DNA of 39,962 bases from Promethearchaeota archaeon. GTDB taxonomy: Archaea > Asgardarchaeota > Lokiarchaeia > Sigyniarchaeales > SOKP01. The DNA lies in the NCBI GenBank assembly GCA_008080735.1, contig SHMW01000032.1, positions 1-39,962 on the forward strand, written 5' to 3'. This document shows, one piece after another, positions 9,681-18,786 of the stretch (the stretch's first letter is position 1; every line of letters begins with the position of its first letter). The notes beneath the pieces are model-generated. The model made no database searches, had not been told where the DNA came from, and saw nothing but the letters and a program-made list of their open reading frames with translations. A program made the position numbers and the translations under genes.

Positions 9681-9968
9681 TTAGTCGCCAATTAATTCTT
9701 TGACTTCTTCTGCACCATCTTCTAGCTCTTCTTTCTGCTGAGCATCCAGCTTTAATAAAAGATACTGAAACTCTCCGACATGTTCTTTCTCTTCTTTTGC
9801 GATGTCAAGTAATATCATTTTTAAGTGCTTATTATCAGTCATATCCGCCATTTGCTCGTATAGATTGATGGCATCTAGCTCTGCAAGTATTCCTTGACGC
9901 AAAATCTGTTTATCCAGATTCTCTTGTTTAATTTTACTTAAATCGATAGGAGTTTTAGCTAATGTCAT
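9681..9968 (-). CDS. Short ferritin-like / rubrerythrin-domain protein (encapsulin-cargo Flp type)
   Basis: AELDAINLYEQ and EEKEHVGE di-iron motifs; ATG 9968 after GGTGA. Confidence 0.88.
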   Translation of the reverse strand: MTLAKTPIDLSKIKQENLDKQILRQGILAELDAINLYEQMADMTDNKHLKMILLDIAKEEKEHVGEFQYLLLKLDAQQKEELEDGAEEVKELIGD

Positions 9969-10239
9969 ATAATTCACCAATAATTCTTATTGACTTACGT
10001 TTAAGATTAAGGTGTTTTCCTTAAAAAATTATACCTTAAAAACTAAAGATTTAATTCAATACAATTAGTTTGAATCATACAAAATTTGAGATTTACATTC
10101 TCTAGCTAAGACTTATATTTTAATTAGCAAAACAACACTAATTTAATTCTATAAGCAAAATTCCGTAAAAAATTATAGAGCGCTTCATTAAAAATTAAAT
10201 AGATTCGAGTAGAGTTACTTAATATAAACCGACAAGAAA

Positions 10240-11481
10240 ATGATAGATATGACAAACCAGATAAAAATACCTTGGGCCGCATGGCGGGATCCCGAGTTTC
10301 TTGAACTTACTTTTCCTGATTCATGGGAAATAAAAGCATGTAGGATGAATAAGTGGGATGGTCCCGTTTTAAATAAGAATCAACTTAAAGAAGGAATTCT
10401 TAATCCCGTCGGAACTCCAAGATTATCAGAATTAGCTAAAGATAAAGAGGATGCTGTGATTGTGGTTGACGATATGACAAGAACAACTCCCGTATCACTC
10501 TTAATGCCCTATATCCTAGAAGAGCTTTCAAAAGGGGGTTTATCAAAAAACCAAATAACCATTCTGCTAGCTTTAGGAGCTCATAAACCCATGATGAAGC
10601 AAGATCAAATCCTAAAATTGGGTAAAGATGTGGTTGATACAATGTGTATTGAAAACCACCATCCTTATGAGAATTTAACAAACTTCGGAGAATCCAGTAT
10701 TGGAACTCCCATTGATGTGAATACCACGTATTGCAATGCTGATTTGAAGATCTCTGTTGGTGGTGTTATCCCTCATCCCTTAGCAGGTTTTGGCGGAGGT
10801 GCAAAAATTGTCCTACCTGGAGTATGCGGAATCCGTACGTTAGAAGCAAATCATTCTGCAGCAATGAGGGGTATTGGGGCAGGTATAGGAAGAATGACAG
10901 GGGTTCGGGAGGATATCGAAGAAATAGCAGATAAAGTAGGATTAGATTTTTCCATCAATCTCATCTTAACAGAGAAGGGGGAGATTTCGGGAATCACGGC
11001 GGGTCATTTTAGAGATTCACACAGAAAAGCAATGGAAATGGCGACTGAAGCTTATAGCACCGAAGTCACATTGGATAACGATATATGTTTTTTTAATCTC
11101 TTTCCCGAAGACTCGGAATTAAATCAATCGGTTAAAGGCTTCAATGGATTAATGACTGCTCCTAATAAAATGCTTAAACGACGAGGGCATATTGTACTTA
11201 TGTCATCGTCATATGAAGGAAAAGGATATCATAGCCTCATAGCAGAAACTGGCGCAAAACTTTACAATAATTTAGGTGACAGTGTAGTATGGAAAGCATT
11301 TGTGAAGAAGCGAAAGGTACTCTTCTTTTCTCCTAATATCTCAGAGCCTGATTTGTATCATTTCTTCCCGAAAAATGTGAAGTTATTCAACAGCTGGGAG
11401 AGGCTCATAAATGAATTGGATTCTGCCTATGAAGAGCCACCGAAAGCCGCAGTTTTTCCATGTAGCATCCAATTATCCTAA
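10240..11481 (+). CDS. Lactate racemase (LarA) family nickel-pincer enzyme
   Basis: DDMTRTTP, ALGAH, PHPLAGFGGGAK..LPG motifs. Confidence 0.85.
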   Translation: MIDMTNQIKIPWAAWRDPEFLELTFPDSWEIKACRMNKWDGPVLNKNQLKEGILNPVGTPRLSELAKDKEDAVIVVDDMTRTTPVSLLMPYILEELSKGGLSKNQITILLALGAHKPMMKQDQILKLGKDVVDTMCIENHHPYENLTNFGESSIGTPIDVNTTYCNADLKISVGGVIPHPLAGFGGGAKIVLPGVCGIRTLEANHSAAMRGIGAGIGRMTGVREDIEEIADKVGLDFSINLILTEKGEISGITAGHFRDSHRKAMEMATEAYSTEVTLDNDICFFNLFPEDSELNQSVKGFNGLMTAPNKMLKRRGHIVLMSSSYEGKGYHSLIAETGAKLYNNLGDSVVWKAFVKKRKVLFFSPNISEPDLYHFFPKNVKLFNSWERLINELDSAYEEPPKAAVFPCSIQLS

Positions 11482-11662
11482 TTTTTTTATTCATTGTATT
11501 TTTATTAGTCATCGATTTTGAAATCCGGTTTTATGGGTATTCATCGCCTCCCCTTAATAAATTATTAAAATTACTTTTTTATACCATTCTGACTCTTATT
11601 GAAATATCGAACTTCAATATTTCGAGATTTAATACATAATAATATAGTAGGTGTTTAAAAAT

Positions 11663-12040
11663 ATGGTAGATTATAATGAATTTTACCAAGAGGCCGACTG
11701 GAAAAAGGAAAAACATGTTCCCGTGATAGATATGGCTAAGCAAGGTGATGTGGTTACAATAAGGCTCCATGTAGGAGAAGAAATTGGCCATCCCAACACC
11801 ACGGAACATCATATAAGATGGATAAAAGCGCTCTTTTTACCAGATGGTGAAAAATATCCTTATGAGATAGGAAAGTGCGAGTTTAATGCTCACGGCGAAT
11901 CAGTAGAAGGACCCGATACATCCACCGTCTATTGTGACCCAGAAGCCACTCTTCGATTTAAAACGGAAAAACCAGGCACAATCATCGCATTTTCTTACTG
12001 TAATATCCATGGCTTATGGAGAAATGAAGAAAAATTGTGA
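11663..12040 (+). CDS. Superoxide reductase (1Fe, neelaredoxin / class II SORL)
   Basis: EKHVP, HPNTTEHHIRWI, YCNIHGLW iron ligands. Confidence 0.95.
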   Translation: MVDYNEFYQEADWKKEKHVPVIDMAKQGDVVTIRLHVGEEIGHPNTTEHHIRWIKALFLPDGEKYPYEIGKCEFNAHGESVEGPDTSTVYCDPEATLRFKTEKPGTIIAFSYCNIHGLWRNEEKL

Positions 12041-12058
12041 TTAATACGATCTAATTTC

Positions 12059-12112
12059 TCTGGATTATAAAACCTTTTTTATTTTTATTTTTATAAATAT
12101 TTCTAATCCAGA
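12059..12112. terminator. Inverted repeat with T-rich spacer between convergent SOR and desulforedoxin genes
   Basis: TCTGGATTA (12059-12067) ... TAATCCAGA (12104-12112). Confidence 0.4.
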
Positions 12113-12164
12113 TAAGAAAATTAAGAAAAAAATTGAGAATCGGGATTTAGATATCTAGGAAATA

Positions 12165-12284
12165 TCACTCCTCAACTAACACCATATCTTCCCCGCAACA
12201 CACGAGCGTACCGAATCCAGATTCAATTACCTTGACTACATTTCCACATTTTTTACATTTATATACTTCTCCTACTTCTGTCAT
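12165..12284 (-). CDS. Desulforedoxin (39 aa; not in ORF track)
   Basis: Manual translation [39 protein letters not shown]: YKCxxCGN...LVCCGxxM signature; GGTGGTGA RBS. Confidence 0.95.
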
Positions 12285-12423
12285 GATTTCACCACCAAGA
12301 AATTTTTAAATCTCGGTTATTTATCAATTAAAGCTTAGCCCAATTAAAGTCTGAGTTTTATATTTCAAAACCTTTCCTATAAAAAACGCTATTATAAAAA
12401 GAAAAAAGTAATTTAAATTAAAA

Positions 12424-12816
12424 CTAAAATCTATCCCACGCTTTATGAACTGCCTTTCCGGTCATTTCTATAACGGGTTGCATCTCATCGGCGGGCGCGA
12501 GTCCAACTTCTGGAGCAATTTTCATTATTGAAACATGAGACACAATCACTTTCCCTTCATCTTCATATACTACAAAACTACAAGGAAAAAGCAATCCTAC
12601 ATTTTTCGAGACATCTAAGGCACCTTTTGCAAATTCGGGGGCGCATGCTAAAATAATGGTATATCGAGAATAATCAACACCCAATTTTTTCTTGAAGATC
12701 TTGTCGATTTCTTTCGTTAACATATGACTAAAACCCTCCTCTTGAATTATCTTCTCTACTTTCTCGACTGCCTCATCAAAGTCCATATTCATCTCTTTTT
12801 TCAGAAAATCTACCAT
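12424..12816 (-). CDS. DUF302 domain protein
   Basis: F.E.V..V...I..EGF, Y.I..AC.P..A..AL, GLL.PC.FVVY pattern. Confidence 0.85.
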   Translation of the reverse strand: MVDFLKKEMNMDFDEAVEKVEKIIQEEGFSHMLTKEIDKIFKKKLGVDYSRYTIILACAPEFAKGALDVSKNVGLLFPCSFVVYEDEGKVIVSHVSIMKIAPEVGLAPADEMQPVIEMTGKAVHKAWDRF

Positions 12817-12840
12817 AATTCTTATCACCTCTCTATTAAA

Positions 12841-13179
12841 CTATTCTGCTAATTCTTTTATCGATTTTAATACATTAGCCGTAAACATCAGGCTGGGACC
12901 GCCGCCCATCATACTAGCTACCAAACAAGCTTCCATAATTTCTTCCTTCGTGGCACCCTCTTCTAACGCGTTCTTTACATGAAGGGCAACACACCATTCG
13001 CACTGCTTACTTACAGACAAAGCGACACCTATTATCTCTTTCACTTTTTTCGATAATGCACCATCCTCTTTTGAGGCTCCCATAAACTTCTGAAAGCCCT
13101 CCATCGCGGCGGGATTTACTTTCCCAAAAGAGTTCATCGTATTTTGGATTTCTTGTAATAATTCTTTACTATTTCTCAT
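12841..13179 (-). CDS. Carboxymuconolactone decarboxylase / AhpD-like protein
   Basis: GAL..K.KE.I...SV..QCEWCVALH...A...GAT.EEI.EA...MGGGP; CxxC intact. Confidence 0.92.
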   Translation of the reverse strand: MRNSKELLQEIQNTMNSFGKVNPAAMEGFQKFMGASKEDGALSKKVKEIIGVALSVSKQCEWCVALHVKNALEEGATKEEIMEACLVASMMGGGPSLMFTANVLKSIKELAE

Positions 13180-14636: not shown

Positions 14637-14707
14637 TGCTCCTAAATATGCTTTTTTTAATATAAAAATAATCTACAAAAATAAAATAAATAGCTAAAAA
14701 AAAAAAT

Positions 14708-15496
14708 TTATAGTAAAATTACGGCATCAACAAAGAGTTCGTAGTTTTCGTCTTCATCAAGGTCGTGGATTATTACTTTTTCAACATCATTTGTTCCTTG
14801 AATCTCTATAAGTTTAGATTCTCTCAAGATTTTTACATCCGAGAATTTTAATCGTTTTCTTAGCTGTTCTGCCCCAGGTATTCCATCTTTATTGGTAACT
14901 AATATTACTCTTCCGGTAAAATCTGTCAATTCTATAGACAATTCCAACGATTTTTCTCCCGTATCTACAATTAATGTCCGTTTGTCTCTTAAATCCTCCA
15001 AATTTGGAATATTTTTGTACACGCCTTTATCCAAAAATTCTTCCATACCGAGTATTATGTCTATATCTATCGGTTTGCAAGATCCTTGCACTTCTACTTC
15101 TGGTTCGGTGCCTTCTCTATAATTATCAATAGCGGCTTTTAATGCATCCGCTGCTAAATTCGAGCAATGCATCTTTATCGGCGGAAGACCGTCCAACTCG
15201 TCTGCTACATCATCTCTTGTAATTTTATAGGCTTCATCAAGCGTCATACCCATTGCCATTTCGGTGACCATTGAAGAGGTAGCGACAGCAGAGCCACAGC
15301 CAAACGTTCTGAACTTTATATCTTCGATAATTTCTTGTTGATCTTCATTTTCGCTTACGTTAATAAAAATTTCCATCAAATCTCCACAAACGGGATTTCC
15401 CACTTTGCCGTATCCATCAGGATTTTCGATTACCCCCACGTTACGTGGATTTCTAAAATGATCCATCACCTTTTTGGTATACTGCGTAGATTTCAT
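14708..15496 (-). CDS. iscU: IscU/NifU Fe-S scaffold with C-terminal thioredoxin-reductase-like Rossmann domain
   Basis: DHFRNPRNVG, GNPVCGD, FGCGSA, LPPIKMHC; ~125-aa C-terminal extension. Confidence 0.92.
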   Translation of the reverse strand: MKSTQYTKKVMDHFRNPRNVGVIENPDGYGKVGNPVCGDLMEIFINVSENEDQQEIIEDIKFRTFGCGSAVATSSMVTEMAMGMTLDEAYKITRDDVADELDGLPPIKMHCSNLAADALKAAIDNYREGTEPEVEVQGSCKPIDIDIILGMEEFLDKGVYKNIPNLEDLRDKRTLIVDTGEKSLELSIELTDFTGRVILVTNKDGIPGAEQLRKRLKFSDVKILRESKLIEIQGTNDVEKVIIHDLDEDENYELFVDAVILL

Positions 15497-15497
15497 T

Positions 15498-16694
15498 TTA
15501 GTTTTTCACCTCTCTATATTGTTTTAATAATTCTCTAGGAGTCAGAGGAGATAATCTCCTTAGCCTGTGGACGACTTGAGGCAATATTTTAATCAATTGC
15601 TCGATCTCCTCTTCTTGCGTAAATCTTCCCAAGGTTAAAAGTAAACTCCCGTGTGCCTCTTCATGGAGTAGTCCGCATGAAATGAGAGTGTGGGAAGGTT
15701 CTAATGTTTTTGAGGTACAGGCTGAACCCGTAGCAGCAGCGATATTTTGCTCTTTCAGATCCAAGATCAATGATTCTCCTTCGATATAATCAAATCGAAA
15801 ATGAGCATTATGAGCTAATCTTTTGGTTGGATGACCATTAAGATATGATTTTGGAATCGTTTCCAATATTTTTTTTATTAAGATATCTCTGTAATTTGAT
15901 AATCGTTTTGTCTCAGATTCCATTTCTCTCTTCATAATTTCTGCGGCTTTTGCAAATCCAACGATTCCGTGTAAATTATGCGAACCAGACCGCATCCCAA
16001 ATTCTTGCCCTCCTCCGATGAGTATGGGATTAATTCGCAAGCCTTTTCTAAGATAGAGCGCTGCCACCCCTTTTGGTCCATAAATATCGTTTGAGGAAAA
16101 TGTAATTAAGTCGATGGGAACCTGATTAACATCAATCGGCAACACAGATTCGCTCGCAACCGCATCAGTATGAAATAATACACCTTTATCTCTCGCAATT
16201 GCACTGATCTCCTCAAATGGTTGAATTGATCCAATTTCGTTGCTCGCGGTCGAAATAGAGATAAGGATCGTCTCATCGTTAATTAGGTTTTGTAGTTTTT
16301 CAAGCCGAACAATCCCGTATTGATCGACTGGGACTTTACTTACTTGAAAACCTTCTCGCTCAAGATATTTGACAATATTCCTTATCGAGATATGCTCAAT
16401 TTCAGAAATAATAATATGATTACCCTTGTTTTTATATCTCATCGCAGTGCCTATAAGTGCCAAGTTATTGGATTCTGTCGCATTCGATGTGAAGATTATT
16501 TTTGAATCCTCTGAAGCATTAATGAAATCTTTAATCATGCTCCGAGCAGTTTCAAGCGTATCCGTAGCCTCATCACCGATATTATGCAGAGATGCGGGGT
16601 TTCCGAACTTATCTGTGAAATAAGGCATCATCTCCTCCACAACCCTGGGATCGACTGGCTTTGCGGATTGGTAATCTAAATAAATATTTTCCAT
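15498..16694 (-). CDS. iscS: IscS-family protein lacking the PLP Schiff-base lysine
   Basis: YLDY, GNPASLH, ATESNNLA, EH, HTDA, TGSACTS; SSNDIYGPKG where SxHKxYGPKG is canonical. Confidence 0.92.
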   Translation of the reverse strand: MENIYLDYQSAKPVDPRVVEEMMPYFTDKFGNPASLHNIGDEATDTLETARSMIKDFINASEDSKIIFTSNATESNNLALIGTAMRYKNKGNHIIISEIEHISIRNIVKYLEREGFQVSKVPVDQYGIVRLEKLQNLINDETILISISTASNEIGSIQPFEEISAIARDKGVLFHTDAVASESVLPIDVNQVPIDLITFSSNDIYGPKGVAALYLRKGLRINPILIGGGQEFGMRSGSHNLHGIVGFAKAAEIMKREMESETKRLSNYRDILIKKILETIPKSYLNGHPTKRLAHNAHFRFDYIEGESLILDLKEQNIAAATGSACTSKTLEPSHTLISCGLLHEEAHGSLLLTLGRFTQEEEIEQLIKILPQVVHRLRRLSPLTPRELLKQYREVKN

Positions 16695-16736
16695 TTTATA
16701 CACCTCGAATTTTTATTTTTGATTTGTAGTGGTGTG

Positions 16737-17096
16737 TTAGAACCACATCGTTCCATCGGCTTCTAACACTAAATCATTGAGCGTTGCAGCACCCACGATC
16801 TTCACACCGGCAATCAAATCTACACTTTCCCAACCCAGCATTCGTTTAGATGCCTCACAAACCAATATCTCCACCCCTGATTCTAAGGTCTTATCTATCA
16901 TCTCTCTAACACTTGGGAAATTCCCCAATTTAATCTTTTCTGCCGCTCCAGGGCGTAATATTTTTAACCCCGTTCCCAAATAATATACTTTTGCGTTAAT
17001 ATCCATGGCTTTAGCAGTTTGAGCTAATACTAATGGGGAATATTGCTTTTCTGGGGCATCTGTCGTTTGTACATACAATAATTCTTTCTTTTCCAT
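16737..17096 (-). CDS. DsrE-family sulfur carrier / peroxiredoxin-like protein
   Basis: GV.I.VCEAS...G...IVGAAT motif with conserved Cys; ATG 17096 after GGAGG. Confidence 0.88.
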   Translation of the reverse strand: MEKKELLYVQTTDAPEKQYSPLVLAQTAKAMDINAKVYYLGTGLKILRPGAAEKIKLGNFPSVREMIDKTLESGVEILVCEASKRMLGWESVDLIAGVKIVGAATLNDLVLEADGTMWF

Positions 17097-17109
17097 TTTT
17101 TTAACCTCC

Positions 17110-17364
17110 TTATTTTCTTTTTCTAAAATAAAATATGAGATCGTTCTCTTCCTTACTAAAATCGATAATTTCAGTATCCGTTCGTTTTGCCCACCGTTTA
17201 AAATCCTCCTCTGCGGCGGGATCATCTGCCATCACCTTAAAACATTGGCCGATCTCCAACTCTTCAGAAACATTTCGGACTTCAAACAACGGTTCGGGAC
17301 AAAATAACCCTCGTGTGTCCAATTCCACATCAAAAGTAGGTTCTTCAGGTTTTTCTTCACTCAT
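17110..17364 (-). CDS. tusA: TusA/SirA family sulfur carrier
   Basis: LDTRGLFCPEP, ADDPAA.ED..RW; AGGAGG RBS. Confidence 0.92.
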   Translation of the reverse strand: MSEEKPEEPTFDVELDTRGLFCPEPLFEVRNVSEELEIGQCFKVMADDPAAEEDFKRWAKRTDTEIIDFSKEENDLIFYFRKRK

Positions 17365-17691
17365 AGTATAAACCTCCTTACTATTGTTTCGCTGATAGTA
17401 TAATACTTGAGTGAAATCAAAAATCTACTTATTATAAATTCAATGAAATTGACCATTTCACTAGTTATTTATAAGGTAGTTCCAACAAATCGCTTATAGT
17501 ACATAAACTATTAATAAAGATCTCAAACTTTTTAGAAAAAAACTCTGTCAATTTTAATTGGATAATATTCTACATTCTATGGTTTATCTATTTAGATGTG
17601 AAATATCTCCCTTCAGATAACCAATCAGAAAAAAATTAATTCATTTATAGATCAAGACTTACTTCGAAAAAGAAAGGATATACAAGTCAAT

Positions 17692-17946
17692 CTACTTGTC
17701 CTTTCGAAAGTAGAATACTAACTCGCTATCCCCTTGGTTAAAATCGACGATCTCAGTACCCGTTTCCTGTGCCCATTCTCGAAACTCTCTTTCAGCGGCA
17801 GGATCATCTGTCATCACTTTGAAACATTGTCCAATTTCCAAATCTGCTGATTCATCTTTAACCTTAAGTAAGGGTTCCGGACAAAATAATCCGCGGGTAT
17901 CGACCTCAACATCGAATCGCTCTTTTTCAGATGGGTTTTTCTTCAT
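17692..17946 (-). CDS. tusA: Second TusA/SirA family sulfur carrier (paralog)
   Basis: VDTRGLFCPEP, TDDPAA; clearly similar to 17110..17364; GGAGG RBS before ATG 17946. Confidence 0.9.
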   Translation of the reverse strand: MKKNPSEKERFDVEVDTRGLFCPEPLLKVKDESADLEIGQCFKVMTDDPAAEREFREWAQETGTEIVDFNQGDSELVFYFRKDK

Positions 17947-18153: not shown

Positions 18154-18786
18154 TTAGTTTTCAGCTAACGCTTTAATATGTTTGACACCCTCGACTGCGT
18201 CTTCGGCAAAATCATCCGCTCCAAGTTCTTTAGCAAGATCCTCATTAAGCGGTGCCCCACCAACGATTAACTTCACTTGATCACGCAATCCCGCATTTTT
18301 TAATGCTTTGTCCACTATTTTTATTTGTTCGACAGTCATCGTAAGCAATGAACTTAACGCGACTATGCTGGCTCCCGTTTCTTTAACTTTCTCAACAATC
18401 TTGGTCTCATCCACATCCATCCCTAAATCGTGGATCTCAAATCCAGAACTTAACAGCAGAGAACCTAAAATATTTTTGCCGATATCGTGGTTATCCCCCT
18501 TCACGGTCGCAAGGATAATCTTTGTCTTTTCTTGGGATTGATCCGCATCTGCTAATGCGGGTTGGAGCACTTCAAAAGCCTCTTTCATTGTCTCTCCCGC
18601 GAGGACTAACTCGGTTAGGTAATATTCTTTCTCTTCATAGCGCCTTCCCACCTCGTCCATGCCCTTGGTTAAGGCGTTAAGCACCTCAAAGGGGTCTTTG
18701 TCCTCACCTAATGCTTCTCTGACCGCTTCTTGAATATCGTCGACCTCTAGCTCTATTATCAATTCAGTTAATTTTTCAAATTCCAT
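18154..18786 (-). CDS. Corrinoid (B12-binding) protein of the methyltransferase cognate MtaC/MtbC type
   Basis: Cap domain GM.EVG.RYE..EY.L.E; DxHxxG (GDNHDIGKN), SSL.T, GGAP. Confidence 0.93.
   Translation of the reverse strand: MEFEKLTELIIELEVDDIQEAVREALGEDKDPFEVLNALTKGMDEVGRRYEEKEYYLTELVLAGETMKEAFEVLQPALADADQSQEKTKIILATVKGDNHDIGKNILGSLLLSSGFEIHDLGMDVDETKIVEKVKETGASIVALSSLLTMTVEQIKIVDKALKNAGLRDQVKLIVGGAPLNEDLAKELGADDFAEDAVEGVKHIKALAEN

Follow-up and report, generated by a model that had tools for sequence, protein, structure and literature searches.

Where does an IscS protein that lacks its pyridoxal 5ʹ-phosphate (PLP) lysine obtain the sulfur for the IscU encoded next to it? This question is raised by five genes in a 39,962-nucleotide (nt) stretch of DNA from a Promethearchaeota archaeon (GCA_008080735.1, SHMW01000032.1), the whole of which is hereafter called the window. 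The genes tusA1, tusA2, dsrE, iscS* (the lysine-less iscS of the window) and iscU follow one another in this order on the minus strand. Gaps of 13 nt between tusA2 and dsrE, 42 nt between dsrE and iscS*, and 1 nt between iscS* and iscU had been reported for them, and both the coordinates and the Pfam assignments agree with that description; the 42-nt gap is measured from the ATG that agrees with the N-terminus of the homologues. We read the cassette as an iron-sulfur (Fe-S) assembly unit of the Archaeoglobus fulgidus IscS2-IscU (minimal ISC, MIS) type with an added sulfur relay. A functional coupling of the carriers TusA and DsrE to lysine-less IscS is well supported by the comparative data presented below.

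The iscS* gene (15498..16694, minus strand; Aminotran_5, 6e-72) encodes a protein of 398 amino acids (aa) with the motif SSNDIYGPKG at the PLP-lysine site and a TGSAC loop carrying Cys326. Its best solved relative is A. fulgidus IscS2 (4EB5, 4EB7, and 4HVK; E value 1e-130), which has an identical SSNDIYGPKG, and in a HMMER alignment the Asp falls on Asp199 of 4EB5, where the D199K variant 4R5F has Lys. The original prediction of a Lys-to-Asp change with the loop Cys kept, in an IscS of the A. fulgidus type, is thus borne out, and the losses extend beyond this residue: at PLP-Lys206, Gln183, and the substrate-binding Arg354 (E. coli numbering), IscS* has Asp, Ala, and Leu, respectively. The protein also scores below the NCBIfam equivalog cut-offs for NifS (460.5 vs 530.75) and IscS (418.9 vs 643.2). 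Judged by sequence, IscS* therefore has the type I cysteine-desulfurase fold of the A. fulgidus IscS2 'dead' type and is not a canonical IscS or NifS.

The nearest 120 database homologues of IscS* are all from Asgard archaea and all carry Asp or Glu after SSN, so the loss of Lys is a fixed family trait and not a lesion. Across a wider alignment of 171 IscS sequences, the 84 that are Lys-less have Gln183 replaced by Ala in 78 cases and never have Arg at position 354; they keep His104 (83/84), Asp180 (83/84), and Cys328, the Cys of the TGSAC loop (84/84). E. coli IscS mutated at Gln183 or Lys206 is inactive, and Arg354 holds the substrate carboxylate (PMC9978102). A. fulgidus IscS is without desulfurase activity and contributes a Cys as a ligand of the IscU-bound [2Fe-2S] cluster (PMC8918507; PMC7585200). 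From the loss of Lys206, Gln183, and Arg354, together with the A. fulgidus experiments (PMC8918507), we infer that IscS* is without cysteine desulfurase activity.

The association of this IscS type with sulfur carriers was assessed at 171 IscS loci from Asgard archaea, Halobacteriota, and GTDB-wide searches, a sample and not a census, with the type called from the alignment and neighbours counted within 1.5 kb. Sample (a) held 40 Asgard loci from a phylum-wide genome search; sample (b) held 80 loci, mostly bacterial, among the matches listed by a pattern scan in which each GTDB species was represented by a single genome, to which 7 metagenome loci were added; and sample (c) held 40 loci from Halobacteriota, the phylum of a Methanotrichaceae genome. 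None of the 87 Lys-type loci has a tusA, a dsrE, or either of them as a neighbour, and iscU is adjacent in 71. By comparison, the 84 Lys-less loci have tusA in 68 cases, dsrE in 51, and either gene in 72, with iscU adjacent in 70. Co-occurrence of Lys-to-Asp IscS with tusA and dsrE, which had been suggested as a check across archaea, is thus strongly positive (72/84 vs 0/87), and it holds in bacteria as well. Of the two carriers, TusA accompanies Lys-less IscS more constantly, with DsrE often joining it.

In every linked locus the carriers share the strand of iscS, and the linkage ranges over Asgard archaea, Halobacteriota, Bathyarchaeia, Nitrospirota, Chloroflexota, Aminicenantes, Saganbacteria, and others. 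The gene orders, abbreviated by T (tusA), D (dsrE), S (iscS), and U (iscU), comprise TDSU (34 loci), TSU (18), TDS (3), SUDT (3), and SDT (3), with others rarer; as there are multiple orders, the linkage has outlasted rearrangement. In our view the weight of the comparison lies in this retention across many phyla and through several rearrangements, with no linkage in any sampled active IscS.

Several individual loci depart from the common pattern. The IscS of small-genome Asgard archaea (about 1.4 Mb; L044:6995-8182 and L052:6944-8182) carries SANS in the place of SSND, yet its gene still lies between an upstream tusA-dsrE and a downstream iscU. In two complete Asgard genomes (L035:5315-9001 and L036:5290-8997), the position of iscU after tusA-dsrE-iscS(ND) is taken by a Lys-type gene resembling SufS/CsdA (400 bits to Aminotran_5). 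A metagenome locus (L056:3897-6635) consists of a Lys-less iscS(SD), iscU, and a second Aminotran_5 gene, without tusA or dsrE, and may represent a different solution in which a dead and a live IscS flank one IscU.

The carriers themselves retain the residues expected of persulfide-bearing proteins in the original prediction. TusA1 (17692..17946, minus strand; PF01206, 2e-19) and TusA2 (17110..17364, minus strand; PF01206, 1e-18) are both 84 aa long and share 51 of 84 residues (61%, BLASTP); both contain CPEP, in TusA2 as GLFCPEP. Their Pfam scores of 69.6 and 67.4 bits lie well above the PF01206 cut-off of 28.6, and the E. coli-type TusA equivalog NF001423 is not reached (39.4 and 46.1 bits vs a cut-off of 78), so that on profile scores they are family members and not TusA equivalogs. 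A locus of the same genus (L014) has a single tusA that is nearer to tusA2 than to tusA1, and tusA2 is the orthologue of the one tusA in related cassettes. The DsrE-like protein (16737..17096, minus strand; 119 aa; PF02635, 4e-14, and PF13686, 2.8e-14) has a single domain and a single Cys, in the motif VCEAS, and scores 53.2 (PF02635) and 53.8 bits (PF13686) vs cut-offs of 22.7 and 25. Its nearest solved structure is the DsrE/DsrF-like 3MC3 (1.5e-13), with whose Cys the VCEAS Cys aligns; the DsrE2 equivalog NF047629 is not reached (42.1 bits vs a cut-off of 210), and the match covers its C-terminal half only. Conservation of these cysteines is strict: the TusA active-site Cys is kept in 71 of 72 cassette TusA proteins and the DsrE Cys in 49 of 52 relatives, the remaining 3 being gapped at that position.

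At the other end of the cassette, iscU (14708..15496, minus strand) encodes 262 aa, twice the usual length. Residues 1-131 (15104..15496; NifU_N, 8.5e-47) pass TIGR03419 (196.2 bits vs a cut-off of 187.9), are 73% identical to IscU 7C8M, and, as a domain model, superpose on chain C of 4EB5 at 0.9 Å with 65% identity. Cys37, Asp39, Cys67, His110, Cys111, and LPPIK are invariant in the alignment, and by these sequence features residues 1-131 are a canonical IscU scaffold. A low-confidence linker (residues 132-145 of the AlphaFold model) leads to a C-terminal domain of residues about 146-262 (14708..15061, including the stop codon), which matches positions 120-231 of TIGR01292 (thioredoxin reductase, TrxR) with an E value of 8e-11. 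The AlphaFold model has a predicted local distance difference test score of 86, and Foldseek places the tail on the thioredoxin reductases 4ZN0, 3F8D, and 2Q7V with root-mean-square deviations of 1.4-2.3 Å over ~118 columns. No CxxC, no GxGxxG or other glycine-rich dinucleotide loop, and no conserved Cys were found in the tail of 23 aligned long IscU proteins. A thioredoxin reductase is ruled out, as the tail has only the fold of the NADPH domain, without a flavin adenine dinucleotide (FAD) domain, CxxC, or GxGxxG; we read it as a probable non-catalytic docking or structural domain. This tail is present in the window's own family, a second Asgard family, some Halobacteriota, and two Actinobacteria-binned contigs. 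The latter (L063:2039-4645 and L064:5227-7971) carry a full archaeal-type cassette with an IscS that is 60% identical, IscU tail included, and reflect either lateral transfer or mis-binning.

The host genome contains further sulfur and Fe-S genes. A canonical Lys-type IscS with SAHKIYGPKG, in which Gln183 and Arg354 are kept, is encoded on contig C86 (15963-17072; L001 1441-2628) without an adjacent iscU, and a second, short IscU lies ~7 kb from it (C86: 8360-8737). One SufB-like gene and rhodanese domains are also present. On the minus strand of contig C3 (119317-120708), a 464-aa metallo-beta-lactamase (HTPGHT) with two rhodanese domains, resembling persulfide-dioxygenase/rhodanese fusions, is possibly another handler of sulfane sulfur.

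In six loci of the window's own family (L015-L019 and L023) and in a Promethearchaeota metagenome-assembled genome (L061), iscU is followed by a gene for a protein of ~800 aa (at 9756-12188, plus strand, in L017) that combines a flavoprotein resembling coenzyme A disulfide reductase (CoADR; a pyridine-nucleotide-disulfide oxidoreductase) with a TusA domain and two rhodanese domains. Its domain composition would fit persulfide or polysulfide handling and makes it a candidate loader of the carriers in those loci. A search of the host assembly for this gene gave weak partial matches only, and with no orthologue there it was rejected as a part of the host cassette.

How sulfur might move through the cassette can be considered from these features and from E. 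coli, where IscS is a docking partner of TusA and persulfide is exchanged between TusA and the loop Cys; such trans-persulfidation is chemically reversible. IscS*, predicted to have lost its own persulfide formation while keeping the loop Cys and the IscU partner, would need sulfur from outside. The simplest source would be a carrier from the same operon, and we therefore favour, at somewhat better than even odds, a persulfide relay from the DsrE-like protein through TusA and Cys326 of IscS* to IscU, with IscS* also providing the fourth cluster ligand. In this relay, the DsrE-like protein and TusA would hold sulfane sulfur as cysteine persulfides. TusA would bind the IscS* dimer in the way known for TusA and IscS of E. 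coli and pass the sulfur to Cys326 on the mobile loop, the reverse of the direction in E. coli; IscS* would then hand it to IscU and contribute the fourth ligand of the cluster. The linkage of the carriers to inactive IscS only argues for a donor role, since carriers acting as acceptors would be expected beside active IscS.

Loading of the carriers in the host could be carried out by the separate Lys-type IscS. The original description of the system as independent of cysteine desulfurase therefore needs to be divided: in this host the canonical SAHK IscS on C86 could load TusA, so independence does not follow, and in A. fulgidus it is plausible, since no Lys-type IscS or SufS was found among the Aminotran_5 matches of that genome. 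The remaining matches there are two SepCysS, MfnA-like decarboxylases, and an aminotransferase. In A. fulgidus, with no Lys-type IscS, loading would have to be sulfide-, polysulfide-, or thiosulfate-derived.

The A. fulgidus genome is part of sample (c); its IscS2 gene matches the whole of 4EB5 with 838 bits and has a dsrE-like gene ending directly upstream of it, and a paralogous locus reads tusA-dsrE-iscS-iscU. Three loci, from A. fulgidus and two relatives, have a SepCysS paralogue at a distance of 2-3 kb from tusA-dsrE-iscS-iscU (L148:1382-2569, L153:8469-9668, and L158:8473-9672). SepCysS as a specific acceptor of the cassette was rejected, because SepCysS also lies near Lys-type IscS in methanogen loci.

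The sulfur source of the A. fulgidus IscS-IscU pair is described as an open question in a 2022 review, with sulfide as the hypothesis (PMC8918507). On their own, the A. fulgidus iscS2U2 genes failed to complement an Fe-S mutant of E. coli, also when Na2S was supplied, and the authors ask what is missing (bioRxiv 10.1101/2024.03.20.586028). In the parts of the published work on this pair that were available, the neighbouring carrier genes were not considered. A full-text search, judged on titles and abstracts and leaving subscription journals mostly uncovered, found no publication treating TusA, DsrE, IscS, and IscU jointly, and an earlier description is possible. The linkage names two concrete candidate parts beside the very genes that were crystallised, and with them the published question of how an A. 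fulgidus-type system assembles clusters without a desulfurase becomes directly testable. If true, a donor role of TusA and DsrE would explain why A. fulgidus IscS2-IscU alone is inert in vivo. We tentatively extend this to a broader proposal, for which we would put the chances slightly below even: TusA, with DsrE as a frequent helper, would be the missing donor of lysine-less IscS-IscU, and the whole a cysteine-independent, persulfide-fed Fe-S machine widespread in strict anaerobes, including Asgard archaea. The linkage is also relevant to how Fe-S clusters were assembled before there were cysteine desulfurases, and to the set of Fe-S genes available to the archaeal relatives of eukaryotes.

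Several points weigh against the relay. The host also has a canonical IscS and a second IscU, together with a SufB-like gene, and may make its Fe-S clusters mainly by a route other than the cassette. The binding of the partners, the direction of flow, and the sulfur source are what we infer, and the failed complementation by A. fulgidus iscS2U2 in E. coli has many other possible causes. Carriers are not adjacent in 12 of the 84 Lys-less loci (3 of which end at a contig edge and 1 of which has carriers 4 kb away), and iscU is not adjacent in 14, so neither carriers nor iscU are obligatory in cis for Lys-less IscS.

The phylogeny of IscS also tempers the counts. Two groups of Lys-less proteins are seen: clade A, which is large and mainly archaeal, with ND plus a few NS, SD, and SA, and the bacterial clade B (n = 15; NQ, HQ, QG, QQ, QS, SQ, and NT; support 98-100), with Lys-type sequences between the two in the best tree. 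As the Lys-less proteins cluster in one or two clades, the counts are not independent. Parsimony gives 4 changes of the Lys state, and a single Lys-less clade is not rejected by the approximately unbiased test (p = 0.38); an independent-pairs test on the tree had only 2-4 usable pairs and no power. The figures of 0/87 and 72/84 may therefore reflect one or two ancient events followed by inheritance and not many independent ones.

This last possibility leads to an alternative that we consider very unlikely, namely that the arrangement is the inherited synteny of one old clade without present coupling, or that Lys-less IscS has another catalysis, for example with non-covalent pyridoxamine phosphate (PMP) or PLP. 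Only one or two origins of the Lys-less state can be claimed, and A. fulgidus IscS binds PMP or PLP for an unexplained reason (PMC8918507), both of which would fit. However, over the distances that separate Asgard archaea, Halobacteriota, Bathyarchaeia, Nitrospirota, Chloroflexota, Aminicenantes, and others, with at least five gene orders among them, neutral synteny would have decayed, and a new activity is hard to reconcile with the loss of Gln183, which contacts the cofactor phenolate, and of Arg354, which binds the substrate carboxylate. Somewhat less improbable, though still doubtful, is that free sulfide builds the clusters on IscS*-IscU and that TusA and DsrE are co-expressed helpers that buffer sulfur, detoxify reactive sulfur, or regulate, handing no sulfur to IscS* or IscU. 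The hypothesis of sulfide as the source for A. fulgidus IscS-IscU (PMC8918507), the sulfidic habitats of these organisms, and the fact that their minimal SufBC systems run on sulfide alone (bioRxiv 10.1101/2024.03.20.586028) are in line with it, but the addition of Na2S did not bring about complementation by iscS2U2 in that same study, and the strict conservation of the carrier cysteines, with same-strand linkage through rearrangements, points to a direct role.

The alternative to which we give most room, while still regarding it as unlikely, is a general persulfide hub of which IscU is not the end point. The loop Cys of IscS* would then only carry sulfur between TusA/DsrE and tRNA thiolation, molybdopterin, or SepCysS, or TusA and DsrE would accept sulfur that reaches IscS*-IscU otherwise. 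E. coli TusA accepts sulfur from IscS (PMC2854127). Several Lys-less loci have carriers and no adjacent iscU (iscS-dsrE-tusA, iscS-tusA, and tusA-dsrE-iscS), and the SepCysS paralogue that three Archaeoglobi loci have close to the cassette would suit such a hub. Yet carriers that accept sulfur should be found beside active IscS, which is the case at none of the 87 Lys-type loci; iscU is adjacent at 70 of the 84 Lys-less ones; and the proximity of SepCysS is shared by Lys-type loci. The relay from the DsrE-like protein and TusA through IscS* to IscU remains the reading we prefer.

A purine-rich ribosome-binding site precedes each of tusA2 (AGGAGG), dsrE, iscS*, and iscU, and tusA2-dsrE-iscS*-iscU look like one operon. 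A run of 11 T (14696..14706, minus strand) lies one base past the iscU stop codon and is probably its archaeal terminator. The spacer between tusA1 and tusA2 (17365..17691, minus strand; 327 nt) is AT-rich, with oligo-T tracts directly after tusA1 and TATA-like AT boxes ahead of tusA2, and probably contains a terminator and the promoter of the four-gene operon. Since locus L014 of the same genus carries only the orthologue of tusA2, we regard tusA1 as an extra paralogue that is probably transcribed as a unit of its own. An Rfam scan of the full window, spacer included, found no family, and the predicted RNA fold of the spacer is not better than those of shuffled sequences (z = -0.14). Scans for sigma-70 promoters (15 sites vs a shuffle mean of 12.1) and intrinsic terminators (2 sites vs a shuffle mean of 2.3) stayed close to what shuffled sequences give, and used models ill-suited to archaea.

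Just upstream of tusA1 and on the same strand lies a gene for a two-domain, B12-binding corrinoid protein (18154-18786, minus strand). The region downstream of the cassette (11651-13179) holds three small genes with redox or stress functions, for a desulfoferrodoxin-type superoxide reductase (11651-12040, plus strand), a DUF302 protein (12424-12828, minus strand), and a carboxymuconolactone decarboxylase (CMD)/AhpD-like protein (12841-13179, minus strand).

Known systems resemble the cassette in different parts. The E. coli IscS-TusA complex (3LVJ) likewise pairs a TusA-family carrier with a CPxP Cys and a type I IscS with a mobile-loop Cys; there, however, the persulfide originates on an active IscS and is passed on to TusA, whereas here IscS is predicted to be inactive and the flow would need reversing. 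In sulfur oxidisers, DsrE3-TusA and rhodanese-DsrE-TusA relays pass persulfide or thiosulfonate between the cysteines of DsrE- and TusA-family proteins and end in dissimilatory sulfur oxidation. The SufS-SufE/SufU relay of SUF is a case of a dedicated carrier feeding an Fe-S scaffold, and it starts from an active SufS. Unlike the proteins of these relays, the DsrE-like protein of the window is a short single-Cys form and not a DsrE2 equivalog.

Closer in gene content is MIS, comprising MisS and MisU (Garcia et al.), which a 2026 review describes as a cysteine desulfurase with a scaffold, naming neither a carrier nor a relay; TusA comes up four times in that review, always for the E. coli ISC system (PMC13066941). 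The cassette shares with MIS an IscS-like/IscU-like gene pair in an anaerobic archaeon without HscAB, Fdx, IscA, and IscR (no hscAB, fdx, or iscA is adjacent to the pair), and differs in that its 'desulfurase' is predicted to be dead and two carrier genes lie within the operon. In Methanosarcina acetivorans, isc1 encodes a lysine-less IscS1 with IscU1, clustered with further genes (PMC7585200). The nearest match is A. fulgidus IscS2-IscU (4EB5, 4EB7, 4HVK; 4R5F), which likewise has Asp at the PLP-lysine site, a retained loop Cys, and iscU directly downstream, and whose genes too have dsrE or tusA-dsrE upstream. In contrast to A. fulgidus, the IscU of the window carries a TrxR-like C-terminal domain and its cassette includes a second tusA.

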